Below are positions 162 through 36,781 of a stretch of 36,804 nucleotides of DNA, one piece after another. The translations under genes and the position numbers were made by a program. The notes beneath the pieces are model-generated. The model was not told the origin of the DNA. It was given only the letters and a program-made list of their open reading frames with translations, and did no database searches. This DNA is from Myxococcota bacterium (GTDB lineage: Bacteria; Myxococcota; XYA12-FULL-58-9; JABJBS01): positions 1 through 36,804 of the forward strand of contig JAYZAY010000074.1 of the NCBI GenBank assembly GCA_036339465.1, written 5' to 3'. Numbering within the stretch: the first letter of the stretch is position 1; every line of letters starts with the position of its first letter.

Positions 162-190
162 AAGGAGTCAGGCATGGCTCCTTTTTTTTT
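162..190 (+). terminator. Intrinsic terminator downstream of 16S rRNA
   Basis: 9-bp stem AAGGAGTCA/TGGCTCCTT (one G-U pair), GGCA loop, T9 tract at 182-190. Confidence 0.85.
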
Positions 191-293
191 GCCCAAATTC
201 TTGATTCCCCAATCCGACTTTGCTCTAAAATTTCTTGCTCTAATATGCGCTGAGGCGTACTGTACCCAGCCGTTTAACATGGAGGTCGTCTGG

Positions 294-2669
294 ATGGCAG
301 AACGCGTAGAGACAGCTGCGGTGTTGGGTGCTGGTGTTATGGGAAGTGCCATTGCTGCTCACTTAGTGGGAGCAGGAATTCGCACAATTCTCTTGGATAT
401 AGTGCCCCCGAATTTGAATGATGAAGAAAAAAAGGACAGAACCTCGCGGAATCGTTTTGCAGATGGTGGCTTGGCGAAGGCATTGAAGATTAAGCCTGCT
501 GCATTTTATGAACCAGACGCAGCCCGCTTGATGACCACAGGTAATCTCGATGACGATTTAGAGCGACTCAAGGAATGTGATTTGATCATTGAGGCTGTGA
601 TTGAACGGATGGCTATTAAGCAGTCCCTTTTTGCCAAAATCGTTCCGCATTTAAAGTCCACGGCTATGTTGGCGACCAATACCAGTGGGCTTTCTATTAC
701 AGAGATGAGTAACTCGTTGCCTGAGGAAGTTCAGAGTCGATTTTTCGTCATGCACTTTTTCAATCCAGTTAGGTATATGAAATTACTAGAATTGGTACCG
801 GGTCCTAAGACGGCTCCAGCAGCCATGGCGCGGGCAGCAGCTTTGGGCGAAGATTTGGGTAAAGGAATTGTTTACGGAAAGGATACGCCGAACTTTGTTG
901 CCAATAGAATTGGTGTTTATAGCATGATGCTGGCGTTCCGGATGATGGATGAATTCGAGTTGTCCATTGAGGAGGTCGATAAAATTGCAGGTCCACCCAT
1001 GGGGCGGCCCAAGAGTGCTGCATTCCGGACAGCAGATGTTGTGGGAATTGATACTTTGGCTCATGTTGCACAGACGTGTTACGATAATCTGCCTGACGAC
1101 AAAGAGCGAGAAGTCTTTAATGTACCAAAATGGGTGACCAAATTGGTCGAAAGTGGCCGGATTGGTCAGAAAGCAAAGGCGGGCTTTTATAAAAAAGTAG
1201 GCAAGGTGATTAAGGTCTTGGATCACGGCAATCTGGAGTATCGTGAACAAAGGAAAGTACGATTTGATTCTCTCGGTGCTGTAAAAGCTGTTGAGGATGT
1301 CGGAGAGCGGATTAAAACCCTCATTAGCCAGGACGATGTGGCTGCTAGGTTCGCATGGAAGTGCTTGGCCAAGACCCTTTGTTATACCGCCGGCCTTGTC
1401 GGGGAAATTGCCGATGATGTGTTGAACGTCGATCGTGCCATGCGTTGGGGGTTTAACTGGGATCTTGGACCTTTTGAGGTTTGGGATGCGATTGGGGTTC
1501 CAGATTCTGTGGCTCGAATGAAGCAAGAGGGCTACGATGTTCCTGAATGGGTCGTAGAGATGGTGGAATCTGGTACGAAAACTTTTTATGCGGGTACGCC
1601 TGCGGACAAGACTTACTACGATCGTTGCTCTAAAAAGAACTCAGTGATCCCGAAGGACCCGCGGCATATTCATTTGGCAGCACTTAAAGAAGACAAGAAA
1701 AGACTCATTAAGTCGAATATGGGCGCGAGCTTGATCGACATTGGGGATGGGTGTTTATGTCTCGAAGTACATACCAAGATGAATACTGTGGATGCCGATG
1801 TTATTAGCATGCTCAATGAGGCTGTCGCGGAAGCAGAAGAAAATTTTGACTCATTGGTTATTGGAAATGATGGTCCACATTTTGGTGCAGGGGCGAATCT
1901 CTTGATGATTTTTATGGCCGCGCAGCAAAAGGAGTGGGGACAAATTGAAACCATGATTTCTGAGTTTCAGAAGGCGTGTCAGGGCTTGCGTTATGCGAAG
2001 ATCCCAGTGGTTTCTGCGCCATTCAATTTGACATTAGGCGGCGCTGCCGAAATCGCCATGGGTGCCGATGCTATTCAAGCATATGCTGAGACCTACATGG
2101 GATTGGTAGAAGTTGGCGTTGGCTTGATCCCCGCGGGGGGGGGATGTCTCCGAACGGTCGAGCGCTTTTCAGACGGCCTCCAAGGTATACCCGGAATTGA
2201 CCCTCTGAAATTTATTGGAACCGGTGCTCTGAATATAGCCATGGCCAAGACTGGTCAAGGTGCCGAGGATTCACGAAGATTGCGGTATATTCTACCTACG
2301 GATGGTATTACCTTGAATCGTGACCATCTCTTATATTCAGCGAAGCAGCGGGCACTCGGGATGACTCGAGCCGGTTATCGTCCGCCACGCCCAAGGACAT
2401 TCAAAGCCGCGGGCTACGATGCGGCTAGGACGATTGGGGTTCAGACCTGGGGGATGGTGGAAGGAGGATGGGCGTCTGAACACGATCGGCTGATTGCCGA
2501 TAAGGTCGCGTATATCATGTGTGGCGGAAATGTGTCGGCAGGAGCAATCCTTTCAGAAAACGATTATCTTAATTTGGAACGCGAAGCGTTCCTATCGCTG
2601 GTGGGTGAAGAGAAAAGCCAGGCCCGAATGCAAAGCATTCTCATGAACAACAAGCCACTGAGAAACTAA
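294..2669 (+). CDS. fadN: 3-hydroxyacyl-CoA dehydrogenase / enoyl-CoA hydratase (FadN type, dehydrogenase N-terminal)
   Basis: GAGVMG Rossmann motif, EAVIE, TNTSGL, HFFNPVRYM, and a C-terminal crotonase domain (FGAGANL, LGGAAE, GLVEVGVGLIP). Start moved to ATG 294, which follows GGAGG at 281-285. Confidence 0.93.
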   Translation: MAERVETAAVLGAGVMGSAIAAHLVGAGIRTILLDIVPPNLNDEEKKDRTSRNRFADGGLAKALKIKPAAFYEPDAARLMTTGNLDDDLERLKECDLIIEAVIERMAIKQSLFAKIVPHLKSTAMLATNTSGLSITEMSNSLPEEVQSRFFVMHFFNPVRYMKLLELVPGPKTAPAAMARAAALGEDLGKGIVYGKDTPNFVANRIGVYSMMLAFRMMDEFELSIEEVDKIAGPPMGRPKSAAFRTADVVGIDTLAHVAQTCYDNLPDDKEREVFNVPKWVTKLVESGRIGQKAKAGFYKKVGKVIKVLDHGNLEYREQRKVRFDSLGAVKAVEDVGERIKTLISQDDVAARFAWKCLAKTLCYTAGLVGEIADDVLNVDRAMRWGFNWDLGPFEVWDAIGVPDSVARMKQEGYDVPEWVVEMVESGTKTFYAGTPADKTYYDRCSKKNSVIPKDPRHIHLAALKEDKKRLIKSNMGASLIDIGDGCLCLEVHTKMNTVDADVISMLNEAVAEAEENFDSLVIGNDGPHFGAGANLLMIFMAAQQKEWGQIETMISEFQKACQGLRYAKIPVVSAPFNLTLGGAAEIAMGADAIQAYAETYMGLVEVGVGLIPAGGGCLRTVERFSDGLQGIPGIDPLKFIGTGALNIAMAKTGQGAEDSRRLRYILPTDGITLNRDHLLYSAKQRALGMTRAGYRPPRPRTFKAAGYDAARTIGVQTWGMVEGGWASEHDRLIADKVAYIMCGGNVSAGAILSENDYLNLEREAFLSLVGEEKSQARMQSILMNNKPLRN

Positions 2670-16472: not shown

Positions 16473-17945
16473 ATGGATGTTGCGCGAAGAAATGCAGTTG
16501 AGTCCGTGGGTCATTGCACTCCAGAGATTGCAAGAGCGATCCAGCTGGCGGAGAGTTTATCTCGCCCAGCCTTTCTACGATTGCATAAACCACTAGAGCA
16601 ACTTAGCTTCTTTAAGATTCTTCGCTATACGCTCTCTGCTAAGAAACGTTATCTGGCTTGGGCGGATGGGCGTGATGATCGCTCGTTCATTACCCTAGGA
16701 GAAATTACCCAAGCCGAGCTGACAGGAGATATTCGATTTGCGCGGGGCGAGTACGTCAGTTCACAGTGGTCTCAACAATGGGTTGAGGCTTCTTTTGTGC
16801 CCTCGGAGGAGCAGCGTTGGAAACCACCCATGGCGGTTGGAGGCTTTGCATTTGCTGCACGAAAGAATCCCCATTCGGGAATCTGGAATGATTGGCCCGA
16901 TGGTAGTTTGTGGATCCCACAATTTGTTTTTCATCGATGGCGTTCTCAGCGGTATGCGGCGCTCACCATCAAGGTTTTGCCAGGGGAAACTCCTGATGAT
17001 GTTAGGACTCATTTGGATAGCACCCATAATGCTCTGAATTCTGTGATTCAGAAGAGTCGGGAGTTGGAAGGGGCATCTGGGAATGGATGTAAGCTTTCTG
17101 ATGAAACAAGCGTTGCTGAAATGGAGTCGCAAAAAAATCATTGGTGTACTTTAGTTAAAGACGCAAAACGGGAAATCGAAACCAAATCGATTCAGAAGGT
17201 TGTTCTGTGCCGAATTGACGAGACTAATTTATCTGAGAATGAGAGTTTCGATCAGGTGGAGACTCTCGATAGTCTTCGCAAGTCATATCCCAAGTGTAAA
17301 GTTTTTATGGTTGGGCGTTCAGATGGCTCTACTTTTTTGGGAGCCACCCCAGAACTCTTTTTGAGCAAACGAGGCAAAGAGCTAAAAACGGTGGCGTTAG
17401 CTGGGACCATTCGGCGGGGCATCGATAAAGCGGAAGATGACCTTTTAGCGACGACTCTTCTTGGTAATAAAAAGGACCGCCACGAGCATCAAGTGGTGGC
17501 TGATTCGATCGAAGAGGCTTTAGCTCCGCTCTCGCTCATGTTTTCGAAGGCATCCGAGCCGTCGATACTTCCACTCAAGAATGTTCAGCATTTAGAAACA
17601 AAGATTCAGGCGACACTTCATCGAGCGCGCTCTCTTATGGAGTTGTTGGCAAGACTACATCCTACGCCCGCGGTTGGAGGTGCTCCAAAGCAAGATGCGC
17701 TCAGATTCATTGAGTCTAATGAGTCAGCCGATCGGGGCTGGTATGCGGGTTTGGTTGGATGGATCGATGGTGCAGGTGACGGCGTTTTTGGAGTCGGGAT
17801 TCGTTCGGCTCTGATTCGAGGGAATCGAGCATGGGCTTTTGCAGGGGCTGGGATTGTTGCGGAATCCGACCCAGAACTAGAGTGGAATGAAACAGCGATG
17901 AAGCTTTTGGCAGTCAAAAGTAACTTAAAGGTTCGTGATGATTAA
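16473..17945 (+). CDS. menF: Isochorismate synthase
   Basis: KVVLCR, FLGATPE, ALAGT, KDRHEH, HPTPAVGG, RGWYAG, IRSA, AGAGIV..S....EWNET..K; first gene of the men cluster. Confidence 0.92.
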   Translation: MDVARRNAVESVGHCTPEIARAIQLAESLSRPAFLRLHKPLEQLSFFKILRYTLSAKKRYLAWADGRDDRSFITLGEITQAELTGDIRFARGEYVSSQWSQQWVEASFVPSEEQRWKPPMAVGGFAFAARKNPHSGIWNDWPDGSLWIPQFVFHRWRSQRYAALTIKVLPGETPDDVRTHLDSTHNALNSVIQKSRELEGASGNGCKLSDETSVAEMESQKNHWCTLVKDAKREIETKSIQKVVLCRIDETNLSENESFDQVETLDSLRKSYPKCKVFMVGRSDGSTFLGATPELFLSKRGKELKTVALAGTIRRGIDKAEDDLLATTLLGNKKDRHEHQVVADSIEEALAPLSLMFSKASEPSILPLKNVQHLETKIQATLHRARSLMELLARLHPTPAVGGAPKQDALRFIESNESADRGWYAGLVGWIDGAGDGVFGVGIRSALIRGNRAWAFAGAGIVAESDPELEWNETAMKLLAVKSNLKVRDD

Positions 17946-19719
17946 AGGTGGCACCGTTGCTCAAATTGTAGGCGACCACTTGGTTGGGGTTCTCACGGAG
18001 TTGGGGGTTTGTCGGGCTGTTGTGTCACCAGGTTCACGCAATTCTCCACTGGTATTTGGTGTTGCAAGGCGAGATACCTGGGATATCGAAGTCATCTTAG
18101 ATGAACGGAGTGCTGGCTTTTTTGCTTTGGGATGGGCGAGAGCTACTGGCGAACCGGTGGTTCTGATCTGTACTTCAGGCAGTGCAGGTGCTCATTATCT
18201 ACCTGCGGTGATTGAAGCTTATCACTCGCAGGTTCCCCTCGTCCTCCTTACCGCCAATCGGCCAGAGGAATTACACGGTTTGGGGGCATTGCAGACGACT
18301 AAGCAAGCTAACTTTTTTACAGACTTTACGCGGGGCTCTATTCACATTCCTGCTCATAGAGAGGAGGGATTGGCGTATCACCTTTATGAACTGGAGCATT
18401 CTTTAGTGGCAACTCTCGATAGTCTTTGGAATGGTATCGCGGGCCCCGTGCATGTGGATGTTGCTTTTCGTGAGCCATTATTTATCGAAGATTTTTCCTA
18501 TGGAGAATGTTCGCGTTCGGGTTTGTTGGGGCCACAACGTTCGTCTCATGTTTTAGGTCAAGAGGAGATTGAGAGGCTGTCTTTGAGTTTGGTCATGAAG
18601 CGTAAAGGCGCCATTGTTGTGGGACCTCTTTTGGATTCCATGCGAGATGAACGTGACTTTCCAGCCGCTGTGGATGCACTTGCTGATTTAATGGGTTGGC
18701 CTATATTTATTGAAGCGACTTCATTGAGGGAGTCTTGGCGGGCTTTTTCCAGCCATATCATTTTTAGGCCTGATCTTGTGTTTCGGGCACTCGAAGGACG
18801 AGAAGATGCCACTCCGGAAGTTGTGATTCAGATCGGTCAAACTCCAACCTCAAAAGCTCTAATGCGTTGGATGAGTCATCCCAAAGTACTTCGTTTTGGA
18901 CTTGAGCCCAGCGGCACCCCATTTGACCCGCTTCGTACGCAAACCGAAATGATTGAGGCGGATGTTGTCTCGACCTTACGTGCTCTGACTTCTAACTTGA
19001 AGTTTATTGACGACCATGAACCCGTGGGGGCATGGTGGTTGAGCGCTTGGCGATCTCTAAACCCAATTTCCGACTCGTTAGGAGCGGAGTGTGATGGGAA
19101 AGGGCTATGGGAAAAGGATGTGATGGAGGTGGTGGCTCACGAGGTTGATGAAAGGGCGACTCTTCACTTGGCCAATAGTATGGCTATTCGCAGCTACGAC
19201 CAATTTGGTGGCCAGGGACTCCTACCGCAAGATGTTTTTGCCAGTCGTGGTGTCAGTGGAATTGATGGAACTATTGCGACTTCTCTAGGTGAGTCAAAGG
19301 GAAGTGGCCTTAAGCCGATGGTGGTATTGTTGGGGGATCTTACATTTTTACATGATTTGGGATCCTTACAATTGGCCTGTGAAACTTCAGCTCCTATTAC
19401 ACTCTTGGTTATGGATAATGATGGGGGGGGGATTTTTCGTTTTTTACCTGTGGCCGAAGGTGGCGACATATTCCAGAAGTTTTTTATCAAACCACATGGG
19501 CTGGAACTTTCTGAGCTGGTGAGTGGTTTCGGACTTGCAACCTATGAAGTTTTTGACAGGGGGAGTCTCGAATCGACGCTCAATCAAATTATCGAAGCCC
19601 CGGGTGTTAAAATTGTTATCGCGAAAGTGGATGGGGAGGTCAGTATTTTGAAGCACCGGGTATTCTTTGAACGCTCCGCCAGCCGGTTGACCGATGCATG
19701 GGAGGAGAGTGTCGGATGA
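17935..19719 (+). CDS. menD: SEPHCHC synthase (ThDP-dependent)
   Basis: SPGSRNSPL, DERSAGFFALG, CTSGSA, ANSMAIR, RGVSGIDG, GDLTFLHD, NDGGGIF. Confidence 0.95.
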   Translation: MMIKGGTVAQIVGDHLVGVLTELGVCRAVVSPGSRNSPLVFGVARRDTWDIEVILDERSAGFFALGWARATGEPVVLICTSGSAGAHYLPAVIEAYHSQVPLVLLTANRPEELHGLGALQTTKQANFFTDFTRGSIHIPAHREEGLAYHLYELEHSLVATLDSLWNGIAGPVHVDVAFREPLFIEDFSYGECSRSGLLGPQRSSHVLGQEEIERLSLSLVMKRKGAIVVGPLLDSMRDERDFPAAVDALADLMGWPIFIEATSLRESWRAFSSHIIFRPDLVFRALEGREDATPEVVIQIGQTPTSKALMRWMSHPKVLRFGLEPSGTPFDPLRTQTEMIEADVVSTLRALTSNLKFIDDHEPVGAWWLSAWRSLNPISDSLGAECDGKGLWEKDVMEVVAHEVDERATLHLANSMAIRSYDQFGGQGLLPQDVFASRGVSGIDGTIATSLGESKGSGLKPMVVLLGDLTFLHDLGSLQLACETSAPITLLVMDNDGGGIFRFLPVAEGGDIFQKFFIKPHGLELSELVSGFGLATYEVFDRGSLESTLNQIIEAPGVKIVIAKVDGEVSILKHRVFFERSASRLTDAWEESVG

Positions 19720-20633
19720 ATCTAAGTTCCTCTGCAGAGTCGCGCCTTAAAGTACAGCCAATGGGTTGGAGGGTTTGGCTACAAGCGGCTCGACCCGCAA
19801 CTTTGCCGGCAGCGTTGGCACCAGTGCTGTTGGGTATAGCCTGTGGGTTTCACCATGGTCAGGTTGATGCGGGCGGGTCGGTCCTCTGCGTGTTGATTGC
19901 TCTTGGAATTCAAATTGGGACGAATTTTGCCAATGACTATTTCGATTTCAAAAAAGGGGCCGACGGCCCAGGCCGATTAGGGCCAACCCGAGTAACATCG
20001 AAAGGCTTGGTGGCTCCTTCCGCAGTAGCGTGGGCAACGGTGATTACGTTCGCAATTGTGTTTTTGTTGGGGTTAATCCTAGTGGCACAAGTGGGCTGGT
20101 GGCTTTTACTTTTGGGGATTGCTGCAATCCTTTCTGGCTTGCTCTACACTGCAGGACCTTTTGCGCTCGCTTATACAGGTCTTGGCGATATTTTCGTGTT
20201 GCTGTTTTTTGGCCCGGTGGCTGTGGTGACAACAACCTATATCAATATAGGTGCGTGGTCCCAGGTTGCGTTCATGACTTCAATTTCAGTGGGAATGCTC
20301 ATTACGGCTATTTTGGTCGTCAATAATCTCAGAGACCGGCTTTCCGACGCCCAGGTCAACAAGCGAACCTTGGTGGTTCGTTTTGGTCAGCGTTTTGGGC
20401 GACTGGAGTATGGAACCTTACTTATAACTTCTTTCGGAATTCTTATCGTGGGTGTGGTGGTAGGTCTCCTACCTAGGGGGACTTTATTGGCATGCTTCAT
20501 GATTCCCAAGGCCCTGATCCAAATCCAAAAAATCAATCAATTGGATGGTGCAGTGCTGAATGCGGAACTCGCTGCTACGGCTAAGTTGAGCCTAGGGGTA
20601 GCGCTGCTTTTGGCTATCGGGGTGAGCATGTGA
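19716..20633 (+). CDS. menA: 1,4-dihydroxy-2-naphthoate polyprenyltransferase
   Basis: RPATL, NFANDYFDFKKGAD, LVVNNLRD..SD...KRTL; multiple TM helices; ATGA overlap with the menD stop. Confidence 0.95.
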   Translation: MNLSSSAESRLKVQPMGWRVWLQAARPATLPAALAPVLLGIACGFHHGQVDAGGSVLCVLIALGIQIGTNFANDYFDFKKGADGPGRLGPTRVTSKGLVAPSAVAWATVITFAIVFLLGLILVAQVGWWLLLLGIAAILSGLLYTAGPFALAYTGLGDIFVLLFFGPVAVVTTTYINIGAWSQVAFMTSISVGMLITAILVVNNLRDRLSDAQVNKRTLVVRFGQRFGRLEYGTLLITSFGILIVGVVVGLLPRGTLLACFMIPKALIQIQKINQLDGAVLNAELAATAKLSLGVALLLAIGVSM

Positions 20634-21691
20634 AGGTTTGTCTGACATCCATAGAGGCCTATGGGCTTGCTTTTGTTTCGCCGCTCCATACTGCTAATGC
20701 GACTCTTCGAGAGCGTTGCGGCTATTTTTGTTCTGTTTCCACCCTCGACGACTCTTTTTCGAGTGTGGGCGAGGTTGCGCCATTGCCCGGTTGGAGTACC
20801 GAAACTTTGTCAGAGGTTAAGATTGTTTTAGAGTCTTTGATTGGTTCAGTTTTCGATATTGAACCAGATGCATTCTTACGGGAAGGACTCGGCGATACCG
20901 AGCGTCGTTTATGTGGGTACCATGCTGCTATCTGTCATGGTGTTGAGTCCGCTATTCTAGAGATCCTGGCTCAGCGGGAAGGACTGCCGGTAGCGGCCCT
21001 ACTCAATTATCGTTATGATTCAGTACTGCCCTACTGTCAGATGGTTCAGTCGTTTCAGGCCGGTGTCGATTTTGTTGTTCAGGGGGGAAGAGCGGTTAAG
21101 CTAAAAGTCTCACATGGGACGGTGGCGGAGGATATTGAAAGAGTAAGCCAAATGCGCCAGGAAGTTGGCCAATTAGCAGAGATTAGAGTTGATGCAAATT
21201 GCGGTTGGGAGTTGGCGGAAGCGAGACAATTTATAGAAGGTGTGGTTGGGCAAAAGGTTTCCTTACTCGAAGAACCCCTGCAAAACCGAGAAAAAGATGG
21301 GCTTCGTTCTTTGTCAAGCTCAATTAAATTGGCGGCCGATGAATCCGTTAGAACCCATGCCGAGTTAGAAGACATTGGAAGTGAAGGTATTTATGGCGTT
21401 GTGGTATTGAAGCCCATGTTGTGTGGGGGGCCCATTCAGGTATTGAAGATGGCTCGACGCAGCCGGGAGCTTGGTCTTGAATTTGTTATCACGACTTCTT
21501 TTGAGACGGGCCTGGGCCGGTCGGTCGCGATTCATACTTCGGCAGCGTGCGGTCTAGAAGGCCAATTACCAGGTGGCTTAAATACCTCCAGTGTCTTTGC
21601 TTCAGATCCATGGTATTTTCCTAAAGGCCAGTCTGGTTTCATTACTATCCCAAATCAGGTTGGTTTGGGTGTGCGGAGGGAAATCCCATGA
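20630..21691 (+). CDS. menC: o-succinylbenzoate synthase (enolase superfamily)
   Basis: GEVAPLPG, KLKV, RVDAN, EEP, ADES, LKP; men cluster context. Confidence 0.9.
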   Translation: MKVCLTSIEAYGLAFVSPLHTANATLRERCGYFCSVSTLDDSFSSVGEVAPLPGWSTETLSEVKIVLESLIGSVFDIEPDAFLREGLGDTERRLCGYHAAICHGVESAILEILAQREGLPVAALLNYRYDSVLPYCQMVQSFQAGVDFVVQGGRAVKLKVSHGTVAEDIERVSQMRQEVGQLAEIRVDANCGWELAEARQFIEGVVGQKVSLLEEPLQNREKDGLRSLSSSIKLAADESVRTHAELEDIGSEGIYGVVVLKPMLCGGPIQVLKMARRSRELGLEFVITTSFETGLGRSVAIHTSAACGLEGQLPGGLNTSSVFASDPWYFPKGQSGFITIPNQVGLGVRREIP

Positions 21692-23517
21692 CGATGCTTC
21701 CCAATCCCCTTATGAGTTCATGTTTGGCTCGGCCAGACCACCCCGCTTTGAAGTGCGGAAACACCGAACAAACCTTTCGTGAGCTTACTTTGCACGTGCG
21801 ATCTTTGGCCAGCTCCTACCTTGCTCGCGGGGTTGAACCGGGTTCTAGGGTATTGTTACTTATTGAAGAACCGTGTGGTTGGATTCATCATTTTTTGGCG
21901 TTGAGGTGGCTGGGTGCAGTGCCGTTTCTTTTAAGACCCAATCTGGACCTTAGCGTTCTAGAATCGGTGTTTCTAGAAACCGGTGCGTTGGTGGCAGTGA
22001 CCGATCAAGAAGAACTTTCGAAACGGCCGAATGTTATTTTGAATTCGAATCTCATTTTATCCGAAGAATTGGCCGAGGAACGATTTTGGTTGTTGGAGGA
22101 ACCGGCTTTGGCGCTCAGAACTTCCGGCTCATCGGGAAAACCCCAATGGCATCACCTTTCCGTGGGACAGCTTTTTTTCAGCGCCATGGGAATGATGATT
22201 CGTTTAGGGCATGCCCCTTGTGACCGATGGTATGTGGCGTTACCTCTCAACTTTGTCGCTGGGGTGTCTATGCTTTTTAGGGCAATTTGGATGGGGGTTA
22301 CTATCGAGGTTGGACTACCCTTTACCCCTAAGGGGTTTCGTGAAGCCATTGAGTCAAGTGGTGTTTCATTGGTTTCTATGGTGCCGACGATGCTCGAAAA
22401 AGTTCTCTGCGCATTTCCCAATTGGTCTCCACCTGATAGCCTGCGAGCGGTATTGGTGGGAGGTGATGCTTGTGCTCACTCACTCTTAGCGAGAGCGGAG
22501 AAGAGTCACTGGCCGGTGGTCACGACTTGGGGAATGACGGAGTGCGCTTCTCATATCGCTACGGGGAAACCCGGAGAGAATTCTGCGGAGACTTGGGTTG
22601 GTCCAGTGCAACCGTTTGCTCGGGTTGAAGAGGAGAACGGGCGTTTGGTTGTCTCTGGCCCCATTACTGCCGATGGTCGAATGGAGACCTCAGATTTTGG
22701 TTTAGTAGAAGAAGGTTCTCGGGTGAAGATTCAAGGTCGCGTTGGCGACATGTTTATCAGTGGCGGTATGAATGTTTTTCCTCGGATGGTTGAGAGGGTT
22801 GCGGAGAAATCCTGCAGCGTTCGTAAGGCTGTGGTGATGGATATACCTCACCCTTATTGGGGTGCCAGGCCTATCCTTTTTGTTGAATATGTCGAGGGAG
22901 ATTTTGCCCTTCAAGACTTGGTGCAGCTTCGTACGGATCTGTTGACTCATCTGAATCAAGCAGAGTGTCCTGATTGGTTGGTTTTGGTTAAGGCGCTCCC
23001 CGAAACTCCTCGTAATAAGGTGGATCGTCAATGTCTTCGGAATTGGTTTGCAGGCTCTGGATTATTCAAGAAGTTTGTGTTGCTTCAAAGTGACGAGGAG
23101 TTCATCCGGTATCGCTCGGGGCTCAAATGTTTTGAGGGTTACGATGGTGTGAACCAGTTGGCAGGTGCACCTGAGCTGGTCATCTTCACCGAGAACTTTA
23201 TAGAAGAAGGTAAGGGAAGTTTTACCCGTGGTCACTCGATCAATCACAACTTTCAATTTTTCGCCGAGGCGCATGGGGGATTTGTAATCGGCTTCGGAAT
23301 GAACCAAGGGCATTCCCCAACCCTTGGTGAAGATATTTCCAAGATGGGTCTTTTCGGTGGCGAGGAGATCTTCAAAGGCTGCATGGCAATATTCGTAGGC
23401 TCTTCCAAAGAAGGCGATACCCGCTCTGTCAACTTCATTGAATCTAACAGTCACAGTCGTTTCGAAACCCATGGCCGCTCCCAGGTTAATAACGCGAGCA
23501 AAGGTGAGCAACTATGA
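21688..23517 (+). CDS. menE: o-succinylbenzoate--CoA ligase with an approximately 150-aa C-terminal extension overlapping an antisense gene
   Basis: TSGSSGKP, WGMTE, TSDFG, GR..DMFISGG.NVFP, NKVDR. The recognisable ligase domain ends near 23055 but the frame stays open to TGA at 23515-23517. Confidence 0.85.
   Translation: MTMLPNPLMSSCLARPDHPALKCGNTEQTFRELTLHVRSLASSYLARGVEPGSRVLLLIEEPCGWIHHFLALRWLGAVPFLLRPNLDLSVLESVFLETGALVAVTDQEELSKRPNVILNSNLILSEELAEERFWLLEEPALALRTSGSSGKPQWHHLSVGQLFFSAMGMMIRLGHAPCDRWYVALPLNFVAGVSMLFRAIWMGVTIEVGLPFTPKGFREAIESSGVSLVSMVPTMLEKVLCAFPNWSPPDSLRAVLVGGDACAHSLLARAEKSHWPVVTTWGMTECASHIATGKPGENSAETWVGPVQPFARVEEENGRLVVSGPITADGRMETSDFGLVEEGSRVKIQGRVGDMFISGGMNVFPRMVERVAEKSCSVRKAVVMDIPHPYWGARPILFVEYVEGDFALQDLVQLRTDLLTHLNQAECPDWLVLVKALPETPRNKVDRQCLRNWFAGSGLFKKFVLLQSDEEFIRYRSGLKCFEGYDGVNQLAGAPELVIFTENFIEEGKGSFTRGHSINHNFQFFAEAHGGFVIGFGMNQGHSPTLGEDISKMGLFGGEEIFKGCMAIFVGSSKEGDTRSVNFIESNSHSRFETHGRSQVNNASKGEQL
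23062..23472 (-). CDS. Hotdog-fold acyl-CoA thioesterase (4HBT/YbgC family), probable DHNA-CoA hydrolase
   Basis: VRFNEVDRAGIAFF..AYEYCHAAFE, PLVHSEADYKSP; ATG at 23472 with GGGAG upstream on the minus strand. Resembles the cyanobacterial-type DHNA-CoA thioesterase. Confidence 0.85.
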   Translation of the reverse strand: MGFETTVTVRFNEVDRAGIAFFGRAYEYCHAAFEDLLATEKTHLGNIFTKGWGMPLVHSEADYKSPMRLGEKLKVVIDRVTTGKTSLTFFYKVLGEDDQLRCTCQLVHTIVTLKTFEPRAIPDELLVTLKQHKLLE

Positions 23518-24593
23518 CACAAACTAATACAGTGTCCACAAAGAATTACTTTTCATCAACTCAAGCAGTGTTGGCCCCCATGGTTAGGGCGGCTCAAGTT
23601 GCAGGTGTCAAATCTCTACAGGAGCAGTTACAGGATATTCAGCGATGGCTCTCCGCGGACCTGGTTGACTTAGAAGCTTCTTTTTTACGCGCCACGGCGA
23701 TTGATGCGGATTGCGCACGTAAGGCAGCAGATCATCTCTTACGACAGCCCGGTAAGCGCGTTCGTCCGTTATGTGTGCTCTTAGCCGCTCGCGCCGGTGG
23801 GGAGGCGATGAGCGAAACGGTGAAGGAGCTCGCCATTGCTTGCGAGTTAGTCCACTCGGCGACACTTTTGCATGACGATGTGCTCGATGAAGGGCGTATG
23901 CGTCGAGGAGCTGAGGCTTCAAGGGTGCTATACGGGAATTCAGCGAGTGTTTTGGGGGGCGATTATTTGCTTATCGAAGCCCTGCGGCGAGTGCGTCGCA
24001 CGGGGGAAAATGAGTTGCTGGGTCGGTTGATGGATGTCATTGACGGCATGGTTCGAGCTGAGGCAGCTCAATTAGATCGCCGCGGCTCCTTTGGGGCCGA
24101 TGCAGATGCCTATCACTATATTATATATGGTAAGACGGCTTCTATTTTTGAGTGGGGATTGTCCGCAGGAGCTCGGGTAGCAGGTTTGAGCCAAGAAGCG
24201 ATCGATGGCTTTGCGGGTTACGGGAAAGCAGTGGGAATGGCCTTTCAATTGGTAGATGATATTTTGGATTTGACCGCAGATGATGCCGCCTTAGGAAAGA
24301 TAGGTCTAGCCGATCTGCGAGATGGAAAATTGACTTGGCCCTTGATTTTGGCGACGGAGGAAAATCCGGGATTGGAACGAGAATTGGATCGCTTGGTGAA
24401 GAGTGCCGATGACGAAGTCGATTTGTCATCGGTTCGAGCTCAGATCTTGGCGACAGATTGTATTGAACGGTCTCAAATCAAGGCGAGAGCCTACGGCCAA
24501 GAAGCGAGGGATTTTTTGTCCGTAGTTCCACCTTCCGAGGCTCGAGAGGCTTTGTTGACCGTGATAGATGCCGTGATTGAGAGGGGTTTATAG
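23514..24593 (+). CDS. Long-chain polyprenyl diphosphate synthase (IspB/HepT-like)
   Basis: GKRVRP, ATLLHDDVLD (FARM, small Ala at -5), RRG, GKTA, FQLVDDILD (SARM). Confidence 0.92.
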   Translation: MTQTNTVSTKNYFSSTQAVLAPMVRAAQVAGVKSLQEQLQDIQRWLSADLVDLEASFLRATAIDADCARKAADHLLRQPGKRVRPLCVLLAARAGGEAMSETVKELAIACELVHSATLLHDDVLDEGRMRRGAEASRVLYGNSASVLGGDYLLIEALRRVRRTGENELLGRLMDVIDGMVRAEAAQLDRRGSFGADADAYHYIIYGKTASIFEWGLSAGARVAGLSQEAIDGFAGYGKAVGMAFQLVDDILDLTADDAALGKIGLADLRDGKLTWPLILATEENPGLERELDRLVKSADDEVDLSSVRAQILATDCIERSQIKARAYGQEARDFLSVVPPSEAREALLTVIDAVIERGL

Positions 24594-24594
24594 G

Positions 24595-25590
24595 ATGCAG
24601 CGTCTGGCGACTATTTGTGTTGGAAATCCGGAAGACGTGCCTAAAGTGCGTTCTCGACTCATTGAACTCGGCTTATGGCTTAATGAGCTTGGCGGTTCAT
24701 CTATGTCCGCATTTGAGGTTTCGGGGGTATCAGGGAGGATAAACGTTCAGGATATAAGAGAAATTCCGGGTATTAGCGAGGTGCTTACCCAGCGAGATAT
24801 AACGCCGCTTCTGAGTAAATTATCTGGGAAGCCGGTTCGCTTGATGGAGTCTTGTACATTGGGATCGGACCTTCCACCGGTTCTCTTTGCGGGGCCCTGC
24901 AGTGTGGAATCTGAAGGCATGCTGGATGAAATTGGTGCAGCGGTAGCTACGGCAGGTGGAAAATTTCTGCGTGGTGGTGCCTATAAACCTCGAACGTCTC
25001 CCTACTCGTTTCATGGTGTTGGGGAAAAGGGTCTCCACTGGCTGAGGGCGGTGGCTGAGAAATACAAGCTTGGCGTGGTTACCGAGGTGCTGAGTGAAGA
25101 CGATGTGGCGGTCGTTGGTGCCTATGCGGATTTGATTCAGGTAGGTTCGCGGAATATGCAGAATTTTGCATTGCTGAAAAAAGTTGGTGCTTTGGGAAAA
25201 TCGGTCCTTTTAAAGCGAGGTATGGCGTCCAATTTGGAAGAGTGGAAGCTCGGTGCGGAACACCTTCTATTTGATGGGGCTAAGGACGTGGTTTTTTGTG
25301 AGCGCGGTATTCGGGGTTTCACTGAAACGACTCGTAACTTATTGGACCTACAGGCGGTTGCTGACCTTTCATTGGCTCAAGGTTTTCCGGTGATGGTAGA
25401 TCCTTCTCACGCGAGTGGACGGCGAGATCTCATCTTACCGATGACCATGGCGAGTTTGGCGTCTGGGGCCCACGCAATCATGGTCGAGGTACATCCATGT
25501 CCCGCTAAAGCCAAAAGTGATGGGCCACAAGCGCTGGGCTTATCTGAGTTGGTGGAACTGGGAGCCGCCATGGGTTGTTTGTCTTCGTAA
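24595..25590 (+). CDS. aroF: DAHP synthase, type I-beta, with N-terminal regulatory domain
   Basis: AGPCSVES, RGGAYKPRTSPYSF.G, GSRNMQNF, LLKRG, CERGIR, DPSHASG, SDGPQ. Confidence 0.93.
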   Translation: MQRLATICVGNPEDVPKVRSRLIELGLWLNELGGSSMSAFEVSGVSGRINVQDIREIPGISEVLTQRDITPLLSKLSGKPVRLMESCTLGSDLPPVLFAGPCSVESEGMLDEIGAAVATAGGKFLRGGAYKPRTSPYSFHGVGEKGLHWLRAVAEKYKLGVVTEVLSEDDVAVVGAYADLIQVGSRNMQNFALLKKVGALGKSVLLKRGMASNLEEWKLGAEHLLFDGAKDVVFCERGIRGFTETTRNLLDLQAVADLSLAQGFPVMVDPSHASGRRDLILPMTMASLASGAHAIMVEVHPCPAKAKSDGPQALGLSELVELGAAMGCLSS

Positions 25591-25672
25591 AAGTCCCATT
25601 CCCGGGTTGTTTAGCGCAGGTAATATCTGTCTCTGGTTTGAGCTTTAAGGCAATGGGAGATAAGACTCCCAT

Positions 25673-26500
25673 ATGCTCAAGTTTTGGAAATACCAAGCTA
25701 CGGGTAATGATTTTGTGATCGTTGATCGATCTCAAGAAATTAATTTGCTCTCCTCTGAGGTGGTTCAACGGATTTGTAAGCGAAATACTGGTGTTGGTGC
25801 GGATGGGGTTCTTTCTTATTGTTCTTCAGAAACCGCCGATGCTCGGATGCATATTCAAAACTCTGATGGTTCGGATGCGGGGATGTGTGGGAATGGAATC
25901 CGAGCTCTTGTGCGGTATTTGTATGATGAATCTCATATTGCAGAGGATCGACCTTCCCTGACTCTGGAGGTAAATGGTCAAGAGTATGGAGTTTCTCGTC
26001 TATCCCACGAAATATACGAAGTGGACATGGGAATTCCGGTTGAGATTCATGCTGAGTTACCATTGGCTGATGCGGGGGGAGCCTATCAAATCGATTTAGA
26101 CGATAAGGTGTTCAAAGGATGGTTGCATCATTTTGGCAATCCTCATTTCTCGGTACTCACCTCCGACGACCCCATGGTATTGGCGCAAACTTATGGGGGG
26201 GTGCTAGAGCGACATGAGACATTTCCGAATCGAGCGAATATTGGTTTTGCCCGATATTTGGGGGATGGTGTTTTGGAGATGGTTGTTTATGAACGTGGGG
26301 TTGGAATTACCCAGGCTTGCGGAAGCGGTGCATGTGCTATGGGGGTATCGGCTTTGAAGCAAGGGTTGAGAGTTCAGGAAAAGCTCTACCAGATCCAATT
26401 ACCTGGCGGGCGATTGATGATTCGGGTCGATAGTTCGTTGCGGGTTTTTATGAGGGGGGAAGCTCAGCGAGTTTTTATGGGTACGGTGGAGGATTTGTGA
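25673..26500 (+). CDS. dapF: Diaminopimelate epimerase
   Basis: GNDF, GVGADG, NSDGS...MCGNG, GNPH, ERGVG.T.ACGSG. Confidence 0.95.
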   Translation: MLKFWKYQATGNDFVIVDRSQEINLLSSEVVQRICKRNTGVGADGVLSYCSSETADARMHIQNSDGSDAGMCGNGIRALVRYLYDESHIAEDRPSLTLEVNGQEYGVSRLSHEIYEVDMGIPVEIHAELPLADAGGAYQIDLDDKVFKGWLHHFGNPHFSVLTSDDPMVLAQTYGGVLERHETFPNRANIGFARYLGDGVLEMVVYERGVGITQACGSGACAMGVSALKQGLRVQEKLYQIQLPGGRLMIRVDSSLRVFMRGEAQRVFMGTVEDL

Positions 26501-28176
26501 GTCGTACTGAATTATTTGCATTGAGTACCGCAGGCGAGACAAAGTACGCCGAGTTTTTGGAACGTCTCCAGGAGGTTGCACAGCTACGGGTGGTCGAAGA
26601 TGTTCAAAATGAAATTTCTTTTTCATCCACAGTGCCACATTTACTGATTACCTCGGGGGCTAGATTTAACTCTACAGTTTCGAAAGTATTATTTTGGACC
26701 CACAGTTGGAATATCTTGGTTGTTTGCTCCAATCGTTTCGAGGTGAAGCATTGGGAAAGATGGGCCGAGAAGGGTGTTCTTTTTTGGGAGTTGAATCATA
26801 GCCCTCCGGAATGGATGGCCCACTTTATAGACCTCTTATCTCGTGATGAAGGTGTGGACCGTTTGACCGAAATGCGACTCTGGCTGATCCATGGACTTTC
26901 GCTCTTGAGGGGAGCAGAGACCGGAGTGCGCAACTTCTCGATACTTACTTCTCAACTTTCTTCATTGTTGGATGGAAAAGAGTACCTTTCTTGGCGGTTA
27001 ATGGACGATGGGAATTTTCGATTAAAGGGTGGGGGTAAGAACCGAGGAAAACGTGAATTTCCGGCCACGATTTTGACTGAAACCAATGAAGGGAAAAGAC
27101 TTTTAAAGTATGGCTTTGTTGATTCAGCCCGAGGATTTCATCCGCTTGAATCTCCGGATAACCCGCGGTGTATTTTTCTCTTCACGAGTGGGATCAATGG
27201 GACGTGGCTTTTTGAGTGTCAACACGAGGGAAGCATCAATTTAGAATTGTCCCTCTGGATGGCGACTCTATTTCTACGGGCTGGGGCTCGGTGTTTTGAG
27301 AGACTTACCGAGTCTCATTTCTTGCGCTCTCAAGGAGATTTTACGTGGGAATTGAAACGTCAATTCGAGAGTGCCAAAAGAACAAAACGCCCTTTCTCGC
27401 TGTTACGTATTCAGTTGGAACGTGTGGATTCGGATACCTCTCTTGATCATGGAGAATGGTGTCGCCGGCTACAAATCATTGTTGCCCGTGAAATCCGAAC
27501 GCGGGTTCGAAGTTATGATGATGTTGGTGAATCAGGTCTAGATGGAGTCGAGGTTCTTCTTACGGATACGACTTTTTGGTTGGCGAATCTAATTGCCATG
27601 AGAATTTCCAAGCGTCTTCAAAAGGTTGTTACTCAATCGAGCTATCATGGGAAGGTTCGTTTTGGGTTTGTCTATTCGGTAGCTACTTATCCTTATTCTG
27701 CATCGAATTTGCACGGCTTGAGGTTTACCCTAGACCGCGAGACTCGAGGGCAAGTTGAAGCCGGGGCCAGGATTGAATTTACTCAGGGGCCTCAAGGGGC
27801 GCCACCCTCGGAATTGAATTTTGAATTTTGGTCTAGGGATTCTCTTTTGGCATTTGAGCCTATTCTATTTCGCGATTTAGCTGCTTGTAGCGAGGGTGCG
27901 GGATGTCTTGTTGCCACGGGTCGATGGGCAGAGGCATGTACAGCGGCAGAGACATTTCTTGGGAGACTTCAACAGTCTGGTTATATTGTTCATTTGAGTC
28001 AAACTGGTATTGAAGGGGGGGAAGACTATTTGGCTTGTTTGACACCCCACCGGTCGATTTTGCTTAAAACCAGAAGCGTTTCTGAAGGTTATGAGGTTTT
28101 CCTGTCTACGGCATCAATGAGAGCCCGAAATTGTATTGAAGAATTTCTTGGGCAGCTAAGGGGCGAAGAGGAGTAA
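26497..28176 (+). CDS. Multidomain protein with a degenerate GGDEF-like domain
   Basis: ELKRQFESAKRTKRPFSLLRIQLE ... RVRSYDDVGESGLDGVEVLLTDT ... SVATYP follows the GGDEF fold pattern, but the catalytic motif is lost. Confidence 0.65.
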   Translation: MSRTELFALSTAGETKYAEFLERLQEVAQLRVVEDVQNEISFSSTVPHLLITSGARFNSTVSKVLFWTHSWNILVVCSNRFEVKHWERWAEKGVLFWELNHSPPEWMAHFIDLLSRDEGVDRLTEMRLWLIHGLSLLRGAETGVRNFSILTSQLSSLLDGKEYLSWRLMDDGNFRLKGGGKNRGKREFPATILTETNEGKRLLKYGFVDSARGFHPLESPDNPRCIFLFTSGINGTWLFECQHEGSINLELSLWMATLFLRAGARCFERLTESHFLRSQGDFTWELKRQFESAKRTKRPFSLLRIQLERVDSDTSLDHGEWCRRLQIIVAREIRTRVRSYDDVGESGLDGVEVLLTDTTFWLANLIAMRISKRLQKVVTQSSYHGKVRFGFVYSVATYPYSASNLHGLRFTLDRETRGQVEAGARIEFTQGPQGAPPSELNFEFWSRDSLLAFEPILFRDLAACSEGAGCLVATGRWAEACTAAETFLGRLQQSGYIVHLSQTGIEGGEDYLACLTPHRSILLKTRSVSEGYEVFLSTASMRARNCIEEFLGQLRGEEE

Positions 28177-28178
28177 GG

Positions 28179-29465
28179 ATGATAATGTCACAGATGGTAC
28201 TTCTTTTGGCTTTGAGTACCGTTGGGTATGGAGCAGAAGACTCTCTTTTATTGGAATCAGCAGAGAATGGGGAAAGGGCTTCCATGGGGAGGGAGCCGGA
28301 GTCTGAATCCCAAGAAAATGGGGAGGCTGCGGAGGAACTATGGCAGTCAGAAAGGGCCGATGACAATGGTGCGGCCGAATCGAAGGCGGCTGAAACGAAA
28401 GAGCAAGAGTCTTCCTCTACTTCGGAGAAGAGCGGTGTTGCTGCAAGTGAGGTTCCTGAGCAAGAAGGTGATTCGAAGGAGGAGTCAGAAAGGGAAGAAG
28501 AGACGCACTCTGGAGAAGTTGATGCCGCTTGGGAGGAGGAAGAACCAGCGGTTTCAAAAGGTTCGAATGTTTCTGATGTGAAGGGAGCCCCCGCTTTAGG
28601 GGAGCCACTTGGTCCCATAAAAAGGGAAAGTGAAAATACGAACCCAACCGTAAAAGACTCAGCAGGAAATGCGGTTGGTGCTGCTCCTCAAAATATTGGA
28701 GGAGCCCAAGGCGCAGCTTCGGAACTTCAATCGCAGGAGTCGGCTAAGTCGGCTAAAGTGTCTGAAAAGGATGGGCCTTATGAGAAGGCAGTGACACAGG
28801 ATGGGGTGGGTGCAAAAGAACTCTCTGTACCGGGAGCCTATGGTTGGGGGTTGGGTCTAAGTTTTCCTATTTCGGGGCCTGTTGCTGGGCTTGGCTCAGA
28901 CAGTCGTCCCGGGGCGGGTTATCACTTAGGTGGTGTTTTGTCGCTAGAAGTGATTCCCCGTTTCGAATTACGCTTGGGAGTTCACCAGACAGGGACCTAC
29001 GGGGGACGAGCCACCATTCACTATGCGGATGGGAATACGGAGCGGTTTTCTCGCGTTGATTCGGAATGGATTGATATAGTCGTCATGGGCGGCGTCGCTT
29101 ATTTACATCGAGACTTGGATTGGCCATGGATTCCATTTTTTGGATTTGATTTTGGCCTAAGTTTCCATGGCTATTATTATGAGTTGCCATCGGAACTCTC
29201 TACATTGCCCGCCAACGACACCGCCACTCAGTTTTTGGAAGGCGGACAAGATGGCTTAACTCTTGGTTGGCGAGCAACTTTTCGGGTGGGAGGGAGGCTG
29301 AGCTTAACGAAATGGCTAGAAACAAGTTTGGAGTTCGCGATTGACTATACCTCACTTACGGACGAGGAGCCTGTAAGCAATACGGTGGTGGGTCGAAAGG
29401 TGCAGACTTTGGGTGAGGATGTATTCCTGTTTAGATTGGTTTTTGCCGTGTGGATGGGTGTATGA
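28179..29465 (+). CDS. Outer-membrane beta-barrel protein with a long acidic disordered N-terminus
   Basis: Signal-like leader, about 190 aa rich in E/S/A, then alternating beta-strand pattern (IPFFGFDFGL, FRVGGRL, terminal FRLVFAVWMGV). Confidence 0.65.
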   Translation: MIMSQMVLLLALSTVGYGAEDSLLLESAENGERASMGREPESESQENGEAAEELWQSERADDNGAAESKAAETKEQESSSTSEKSGVAASEVPEQEGDSKEESEREEETHSGEVDAAWEEEEPAVSKGSNVSDVKGAPALGEPLGPIKRESENTNPTVKDSAGNAVGAAPQNIGGAQGAASELQSQESAKSAKVSEKDGPYEKAVTQDGVGAKELSVPGAYGWGLGLSFPISGPVAGLGSDSRPGAGYHLGGVLSLEVIPRFELRLGVHQTGTYGGRATIHYADGNTERFSRVDSEWIDIVVMGGVAYLHRDLDWPWIPFFGFDFGLSFHGYYYELPSELSTLPANDTATQFLEGGQDGLTLGWRATFRVGGRLSLTKWLETSLEFAIDYTSLTDEEPVSNTVVGRKVQTLGEDVFLFRLVFAVWMGV

Positions 29466-35578: not shown

Positions 35579-36781
35579 ATGGCCAAAGAGAAATTTGATC
35601 GATCAAAGCCTCACGTGAATGTTGGCACTATTGGTCACGTCGACCACGGTAAAACAACGCTAACCGCTGCTTTGACAAAAGTATCCGCTGGGGAAAACGA
35701 GGGAGTGAAGGCGATTAACTACGATGAAGTAGCGAAAGCGTCCGAGTCACAGGGGCGCCGTGATGCAAGTAAAATCATGACGATTGCCACTTCACATGTC
35801 GAATATGAAACAGCCAATCGTCATTATGCACATGTCGACTGTCCGGGGCACGCAGACTACGTGAAGAACATGATCACCGGTGCGGCTCAGATGGACGGTG
35901 CGATCCTGGTTGTTTCAGCCGCGGATGGCCCAATGCCTCAGACCCGAGAGCATGTCCTTTTGGCGCGACAGGTTAACGTTCCCCACCTAGTGGTATTTAT
36001 GAATAAGGTGGATGTTGTTGATGATGAGGAACTTCTCGATCTTGTTGAATTGGAAGTTCGCGAGCTTCTCAACGAGTATAAGTTTCCTGGTGATGATGCC
36101 CCAGTCATTAGGGGGTCTGCCCTTGGAGCGATTGAAGGCAAGGAAGCAGGTGTTAACTCGATAAAGGAGCTATTCGAAGCACTTGATAATTTCATCCCTG
36201 AGCCTGTTCGAATCACGGATAAGCCCTTTTTGATGCCAATCGAGGACGTTTTCTCGATCTCCGGTCGTGGAACAGTTGTCACCGGTCGAGTGGAGCGTGG
36301 AATCCTAAGAACTGGCGATGAAATCGAAATCGTTGGTATTCGGGAAACGCAAAAAAGCACCTGTACTGGCGTCGAAATGTTCCGAAAATTACTTGACGAA
36401 GGTCGAGCCGGAGACAACATCGGCGCGCTTTTACGTGGAACCAAGCGTGAAGATGTTGAGCGCGGGCAGGTTCTTGCTGCACCTGGAACGATCACTCCTC
36501 ACCAAAAGTTTAATTGTGAGGTTTATGTTCTTAACAAGGACGAAGGCGGGCGACACACCCCGTTTTTCAGTAACTATCGACCACAGTTCTACTTTCGAAC
36601 CACGGACGTAACCGGCTCCATTAAGTTACCCGAAGGTACTGAAATGGTGATGCCTGGTGATAACGTTTCAATGGAAGTTGAACTCATCTGCCCAATCGCA
36701 ATGGAACGAGAAGTCCGATTCGCGATTAGGGAAGGTGGCCGTACCATTGGTGCTGGTGTTGTTACTGACATCATTGAATAG
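35579..36781 (+). CDS. tuf: Elongation factor Tu
   Basis: [40 protein letters not shown]. Confidence 0.99.

Follow-up and report, generated by a model that had tools for sequence, protein, structure and literature searches.

Why should a biosynthetic gene read on, without a stop codon, past the end of its enzyme domain and across a complete gene on the opposite strand? The question is posed by contig JAYZAY010000074.1 (assembly GCA_036339465.1) of a Myxococcota bacterium, whose 36,804 nucleotides (nt) are the window analysed here. In it, the open reading frame (ORF) of menE, 21688..23517 on the plus strand (609 amino acids, aa), continues for 153 codons beyond its catalytic part, lies in codon register opposite a hotdog-type thioesterase gene and terminates on the start codon of a polyprenyl diphosphate synthase gene. 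From the comparison of related loci, we consider it rather likely that selection maintains the extra codons as a translational bridge, on which ribosomes would cross an antisense pathway gene inside a non-contiguous men operon.

The enzyme part of the frame is well delimited. Pfam places AMP-binding at aa 14-314 and AMP-binding_C at aa 368-444, and the NCBIfam menE models, which are the top matches, end at aa 449-455 of the 609-aa ORF. Since these models score below their curated cut-offs (207.7 bits against 556, and 193.2 against 330), the assignment as MenE leans on the men gene context. The last 153 residues (23056-23514) matched no Pfam or NCBIfam family. The extension and the thioesterase gene share identical triplets, an exact register. 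The first-pass annotation, made from the sequence alone, had reported this continuation of the frame, a complete thioesterase gene on the minus strand (23472-23062) with its own Shine-Dalgarno site, the TGA/ATG overlap at 23514-23517 and a gap of 41 nt between the divergent thioesterase and synthase ATGs (23473-23513). Its description is accurate in all checkable details, and its interpretation was partly supported by the comparisons below.

A missed stop or a frameshift at the end of the ligase domain would be the simplest explanation, and the first-pass annotation had cautioned that the stop might have been lost recently or by sequencing error. Logan contigs of four marine or seawater metagenome runs, each from a different study, had 0 differing letters and 0 gaps wherever they covered 22600-24000, including 23040-23070, where a missed stop had been thought possible. 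Because the contigs of four independent runs match the junction exactly, an assembly or sequence error is excluded. The menE tail can contain a stop codon only where the thioesterase gene has TTA, CTA or TCA. These three make up 3.3% of the codons in the long ORFs of this genome, and 100 of 4940 non-overlapping 150-codon windows of long ORFs (2.0%) contain none of them. With 2.0% of comparable windows open, a single open antisense frame is not significant alone; it is the conservation across relatives that is significant.

The source names of matching proteins and records put the clade in Myxococcota. Of the 22 genomes of the order that were searched, 14 (the genome of the window is one of them) matched menE at E <= 1e-30. 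Nine of the remaining 13 also have the thioesterase gene in antisense orientation between menE and the synthase gene, and there the menE frame stays open for a further 154-162 codons across it, at identities of 34-44% for menE and 27-59% for the thioesterase. Four of the genomes G002, G004, G008, G009 and G015 have no thioesterase gene between menE and the synthase gene. The thioesterase was sought elsewhere in these five, yielding weak and probably paralogous hotdog matches (E 9e-7 to 5e-17), for which reason relocated thioesterase genes were not used as a natural control.

For a broader comparison, we took loci of thioesterase relatives with their flanks, 80 from metagenome contigs and 80 from species-representative genomes, removed near-duplicates and classed the 148 distinct loci by gene arrangement only. 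The test class comprised those in which the thioesterase gene is divergent from a synthase gene whose extrapolated start falls -60 to +250 nt from the thioesterase start. TTA, CTA and TCA are absent from the thioesterase gene in 42 of the 44 arrangement-matched loci, against 52 of the 104 others. Among loci with a GC content of at most 0.60, a cut picked after the data had been seen, all 12 arrangement-matched thioesterase genes are stop-free on the opposite strand, compared with 5 of 27 others (Fisher p = 1.6e-6). The flanking menE and synthase genes of the low-GC matched loci contain 1.8-4.5% TTA, CTA and TCA codons, and the per-locus chance of finding none, calculated from this codon use, is 0.001-0.09; over the 25 stop-free loci of a first set of 26, the summed log10 P is -19 to -26. 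Thioesterase protein identity among the low-GC loci is 40-74%, two close pairs excepted. Since synonymous codon identity is at the random expectation at these distances, their Leu and Ser codon choices are near-independent.

Register tells the same story. In 36 of 37 arrangement-matched loci, menE shares the codon register of the thioesterase gene, against 9 of 30 loci with convergent menE and thioesterase genes and no synthase gene, which is about the chance rate; in seven further loci the contig ends ahead of menE, and these were scored for openness only. The sole stop-forming codon of locus L138 lies upstream of where the thioesterase gene probably starts, 11-14 nt within the synthase gene, so this locus fits the rule. 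Taken together, the comparison indicates that both antiparallel frames have been kept open across species beyond chance. The orthologue comparison that had been proposed to settle the matter thus finds both the open frame and, in the first set, the stop/start overlap conserved, and the open frame, which low-GC relatives also keep free of stops, is no recent stop loss. Of the low-GC stop-free loci in other arrangements, which also include L146 and L159, five were inspected (L052, L065, L070, L074 and L067); the antisense frames of these five do not continue an upstream gene and were set aside as chance.

Where the long frame ends is as telling as its openness. In the first set, with starts assigned by hand from in-frame candidates near the alignment start, the tail stop overlaps the synthase start as ATGA in 13 of 26 loci and by one base (TGATG or TAATG) in four. 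In six others, the synthase start overlaps the tail stop or lies at most 12 nt beyond it (the start codons of L026 and L030 are ambiguous); in two the stop is 14-29 nt within the synthase gene, and in one, L019, the bridge is absent. Across all 44 arrangement-matched loci, the stop falls between -45 and +30 nt of the extrapolated synthase start. Relatives without the thioesterase gene have bridges of only 12-66 unrelated codons, and still their menE stop overlaps or abuts the synthase start, as in L015, where a 47-codon bridge ends in ATGA. In L161, a locus recorded under a metagenome-assembled genome of Nannocystis sp., there is no synthase gene at this place; the extended menE crosses the thioesterase (match 2501-2890), and its ATGA falls on the start of a methyltransferase gene of the UbiE/MenG family (L161:1590-2336:-; Ubie_methyltran, 9e-54), the same bridge with another downstream partner. 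Because the overlap persists in loci without a thioesterase gene, coupling of menE to the next gene is itself a conserved trait. What is conserved would seem to be unbroken translation from menE to the next co-oriented start, regardless of the intervening DNA, and the conserved overlap fits the earlier suggestion of a tail that takes ribosomes past the antisense gene.

We therefore propose the following model, in which we infer that the genes are co-transcribed, that the tail is translated and what parts Rho and coupling play. The genes menF, menD, menA, menC and menE, the polyprenyl synthase gene and a DAHP synthase gene would form one chain held together by stop/start overlaps, with the thioesterase gene interposed on the opposite strand. 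As the menE frame lacks a stop where the enzyme domain ends, ribosomes would continue over the thioesterase antisense sequence and terminate at the synthase start codon. The approximately 450 nt opposite the thioesterase gene would remain covered by ribosomes, which would avert Rho-dependent polarity and may also reduce pairing of the menE tail with the thioesterase mRNA. The bridge would thereby keep the menE-to-synthase translational coupling found across the clade, and the tail itself would be a tolerated, probably unfolded appendage of tuned composition. Rho loads onto untranslated RNA, causing polarity, according to the available part of a review of coupling (PMC12548453). A rho gene is present in the genome (686 bits, above the cut-off), and a scan of 23000-23520 returned no terminator-like site. 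The 41-nt divergent spacer, this lack of a terminator-like site and the conserved ORF continuity suggest that one transcript may span the thioesterase gene.

Several observations weigh against this model, in addition to the choice of the GC cut after the fact. The related loci are only partly independent, and most bridged loci are so rich in GC that chance would be expected to leave the antisense frame open (P = 0.2-0.85 each). In L019, which belongs to another family (GC 0.70), menE stops at the domain end and is out of register. The frame of L119, which fell narrowly outside the arrangement threshold, stops about 50 codons short of the thioesterase start and leaves approximately 90-120 nt untranslated. 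The synthase gene has a Shine-Dalgarno-like site of its own, so its expression need not depend on coupling. In the window, the thioesterase gene has an ordinary third-position bias, the weakest in its class (A3 23%, C3 35%, a C3 matched by 22% of genome windows). Finally, none of the listed sequencing runs that contain 22600-24000 is an RNA run.

The most obvious alternative is true dual coding, in which the 150-aa tail would be a functional part of MenE, for instance an interaction or localisation module, with its amino-acid sequence under selection. The composition of the tail, which we also count in favour of the bridge, is in keeping with this. In the low-GC bridged loci, thioesterase third codon positions, which are the first codon positions of the tail, are 43% C and 10.5% A, where the flanking genes have 24-27% C and 18-20% A; low-GC relatives of the thioesterase from other arrangements also differ in this bias (Mann-Whitney p = 1.5e-6 for C, 1.2e-4 for A). 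First codon positions of the tail are consequently G-rich and T-poor, as they are in real coding sequence, and the tails have much Gly, Glu and Asp but little Cys, Tyr, Trp and Arg. Moreover, in 12 of 13 close bridged pairs, the thioesterase gene keeps more of the synonymous codons at conserved residues other than Leu and Ser than menE or the synthase gene does (in L025-L027, 72/100 against 50/105 and 115/237, respectively), but the 13 pairs amount to about seven independent contrasts. Distant pairs have no site-specific excess beyond codon usage (synonymous conservation 0.435 observed, 0.427 expected); in these, the raw surplus of codons that are identical in the thioesterase gene is largely accounted for by its skewed codon usage. 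The control pairs, drawn from thioesterase genes without a bridge, were too close or confounded by shadow ORFs, and their outcome was mixed. Nor does the tail look like a domain: besides the missing family match, AlphaFold2, given an alignment of 20 full-length bridged proteins, returned predicted local distance difference test (pLDDT) values of 66-98 for aa 1-459 and of 22-42 for aa 460-609, which gives the tail no confident fold, and the bridge shrinks to 12-66 unrelated codons where the thioesterase gene is absent. We regard dual coding as unlikely. A more specific version, in which the tail is a selected, disordered C-terminal module of MenE that tethers or regulates the thioesterase encoded opposite or membrane steps of the pathway, seems to us more doubtful still; if it held, each strand of the same approximately 410 nt would encode a functional product, in register with the other, and this would be conserved across a bacterial order. 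The data as a whole suggest selection on the general make-up of the tail (soluble, without stops and near-stop codons), not on a defined fold.

The bridge might instead serve mainly to regulate the thioesterase, with ribosomes on the sense mRNA preventing or modulating its pairing with the thioesterase mRNA and RNase III cleavage, or setting the balance of transcriptional collision, and coupling being secondary. The architecture, a non-contiguous operon with an antisense pathway gene, resembles the menA case of Staphylococcus aureus as far as that is described in the accessible part of PMC11034616, and the closeness of the divergent starts would put the thioesterase promoter in or next to the synthase gene. 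However, regulation of the thioesterase leaves unexplained both the exact coincidence of the frame's end with the next start codon and the bridge or overlap of relatives without a thioesterase gene, and we give this explanation a low probability. As a neutral relic, the long ORF would be functionless, the menE stop having been lost in a GC-rich ancestor with a chance-open antisense frame, or it would be an artefact of assembly or annotation. Openness is expected anyway in GC-rich relatives, 2% of comparable windows in this genome are open and long shadow ORFs are frequent in it, at approximately 50% GC; a 246-aa ORF (786..1526, minus strand) is nested antisense in an 831-aa ORF (174..2669, plus strand), and further nested antisense ORFs occupy 28106..28618 and 35938..36495. 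Against this stand the 12 stop-free low-GC bridged loci, whose flanking genes do use the stop-forming codons and which, the two close pairs aside, are far from near-identical copies, together with the register kept in all but one locus, the conserved stop/start overlaps and the identical sequence from four independent runs. A neutral origin is strongly disfavoured and, in our judgement, very improbable.

The gene that the bridge crosses is probably a 1,4-dihydroxy-2-naphthoyl-CoA (DHNA-CoA) hydrolase of the 4HBT type, as the first-pass annotation had supposed. A profile of 12 thioesterase orthologues searched against PDB matched best, over its full length, the DHNA-CoA hydrolase 4k00 (E 1.4e-27), the closest solved relative, with YbgC far weaker (about 1e-14), and some sources name relatives at 50-54% identity '1,4-dihydroxy-2-naphthoyl-CoA hydrolase'. 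The best match and these names make a role in the menaquinone pathway likely, the activity being predicted from sequence. The NCBIfam matches (YbgC/FadM, MenI_Staph) are all under their curated cut-offs. Purifying selection on the amino-acid sequence is clearly indicated by 12 invariant columns in the alignment, including the N-terminal D15, presumably the acidic catalytic residue of 4HBT-class hotdog enzymes. The minus-strand ORF 23062..23511 begins at a TTG and encodes 149 aa with the same 4HBT_2 match (E 1.2e-13); relatives align starting at ATG 23472, in agreement with a start there. In L067, a metagenome locus, a 54%-identical relative lies directly downstream, on the same strand, of an alpha/beta-hydrolase-like ORF that, as a guess from a sequence motif, may be MenH-like, which is a further arrangement of this pathway gene.

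Because the divergent starts are just 41 nt apart here and 5 nt apart in the metagenome locus L046 (junction ~647-658), the thioesterase promoter probably lies within or beside the synthase gene. The sole element behind the earlier guess that it is in the synthase gene is a sigma-70-like consensus match at 23538..23511; the scan found two such sites in the region against 2.2 expected from shuffles, and so provides no evidence of function. The 5-nt spacer of L046 also means that both ribosome-binding regions lie within the opposite gene's coding sequence.

The neighbouring genes over 16473-28176 are all on the plus strand, with the thioesterase gene interposed (Table 1). A stop/start overlap marks each junction of the plus-strand chain from the menF-like gene through the DAHP synthase-family gene, whose start overlaps the end of the polyprenyl synthase gene by 17 nt. 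The menA/menC junction is GTGA (20630-20633). The first-pass annotation had seen the ATGA coupling of the bridge at menC/menE and menD/menA as well; the former stands (21688-21691), and the latter holds provided that menA starts at ATG 19716. At the far end of the run, a 559-aa ORF (26497..28176, plus strand) has no Pfam family at E <= 1e-5, and its GTG start overlaps the stop of a dapF-like gene as GTGA (26497-26500). Five proteins from the searches (P0008, P0011, P0015, P0040 and P0042; 692-789 aa) carry MenC (MR_MLE) and MenE domains in a single chain and appear to be menC-menE fusions of some Myxococcota.

Table 1. Features at and around the extended menE frame; positions are those of the window.
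Feature	Position	Strand	Evidence or remark
menF-like gene	16473-17945	+	Pfam Chorismate_bind
menD-like thiamine diphosphate (ThDP)-enzyme gene	17935-19719	+	Pfam TPP_enzyme_N/C
menA-like UbiA-family gene	19698/19716-20633	+	Pfam UbiA
menC	20630-21691	+	Pfam MR_MLE_C and MenC_N
menE catalytic part, o-succinylbenzoate-CoA ligase-like, ~456 aa	21688..23055	+	Pfam AMP-binding, AMP-binding_C
Extension of the menE frame (putative bridge), 153 codons and TGA	23056..23517	+	Antisense to, and in codon register with, the thioesterase gene; no stop
Hotdog (4HBT-type) thioesterase gene, 136 aa from ATG 23472, TAA 23062-23064	23062..23472	-	Pfam 4HBT_2 1.2e-13
Shine-Dalgarno-like GGGAG	23478-23482	-	5 nt upstream of the thioesterase ATG; read from sequence
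Shine-Dalgarno-like AGGTGAG	23502..23508	+	Ahead of the synthase ATG, within the last codons of the bridge; read from sequence
Sigma-70-like match TGGACA-16-CATAGT, TG ahead of the second hexamer	23538..23511	-	Upstream of the thioesterase gene, in the synthase 5' end; consensus scan only
ATGA, overlap of extended menE stop and synthase start	23514-23517	+	TGA 23515-23517 over ATG 23514-23516
Polyprenyl diphosphate synthase gene (menaquinone side chain)	23514..24593	+	Pfam polyprenyl_synt 4.2e-57
DAHP synthase-family gene	24577..25590	+	Pfam DAHP_synth_1 3.1e-71

Non-contiguous men operons have been described in S. aureus, in the parts of the reports available to us as menEC-01914-ytkD-01912 and as 00979-[menA antisense]-menFDHB (PMC11034616, PMC7154746). 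There, the part of the operon mRNA that faces the antisense gene forms an internal untranslated region (PMC7154746), which base-pairs with the mRNA of that gene and undergoes RNase III cleavage (PMC7154746, PMC11034616), and menA, antisense in the 00979-menFDHB operon, is regulated through RNase III and transcriptional interference (PMC11034616). The locus studied here shares with these, on the same partial accounts, an opposite-strand gene within a menaquinone operon, menA also being a pathway gene (PMC11034616). Unlike in S. aureus, the upstream ORF spans the entire antisense gene in register and ends on the next start codon; and while co-transcription was shown by RNA data for S. aureus, as reported in the sections available, it is inferred for menE and the synthase.

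Nearly every bridged locus has the stop of the extended menE overlapping or adjoining the next start, as in translationally coupled ATGA and TGATG pairs; unlike ordinary coupled pairs, some 150 upstream codons without a recognisable domain are the reverse complement of another gene. The words 'antisense' and 'opposite' do not occur in the accessible text of the coupling review (PMC12548453). A third precedent is the preprint 10.1101/724807, whose accessible part lists 2,898 cases of antiparallel overlapping ORFs with statistical avoidance of opposite-strand stops and suggests that, for some of them, being translated may be what matters, and not an essential protein product. The complete overlap and the opposite-strand stop avoidance are common to those ORFs, so described, and to ours, which differs in that it prolongs a conserved enzyme gene at its 3' end, is part of an operon, stops at a defined point and leaves a plausible role for translation itself. 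Thus, the parts (non-contiguous operon, ATGA coupling, stop-avoiding antiparallel ORFs) are known and the combination is new, namely an enzyme gene extended in register over a whole antisense pathway gene, ending on the next start and selected in many genomes. We found no prior description of an ORF extension across an antisense operon gene in open-access papers and preprints.

The nesting also has a consequence for annotation. The 609-aa MenE is present in a public protein collection of 15 billion proteins, whereas this genome's thioesterase, looked for under both of its candidate starts, could not be found in it, and called relatives come mostly from very short contigs. Public annotation seems to have dropped the nested gene, and gene callers can thus hide a pathway enzyme under a long ORF.

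If the extra codons are a bridge, they would supply a concrete cause for stop avoidance opposite a bacterial gene, that is, the need for translation to cross an antisense gene within an operon. Any change of a thioesterase Leu or Ser codon to TTA, CTA or TCA places a stop in the bridge without changing the thioesterase protein. The bridge would thereby tie together non-contiguous operons, translational coupling and Rho polarity, and antiparallel overlapping ORFs, which are usually treated apart.

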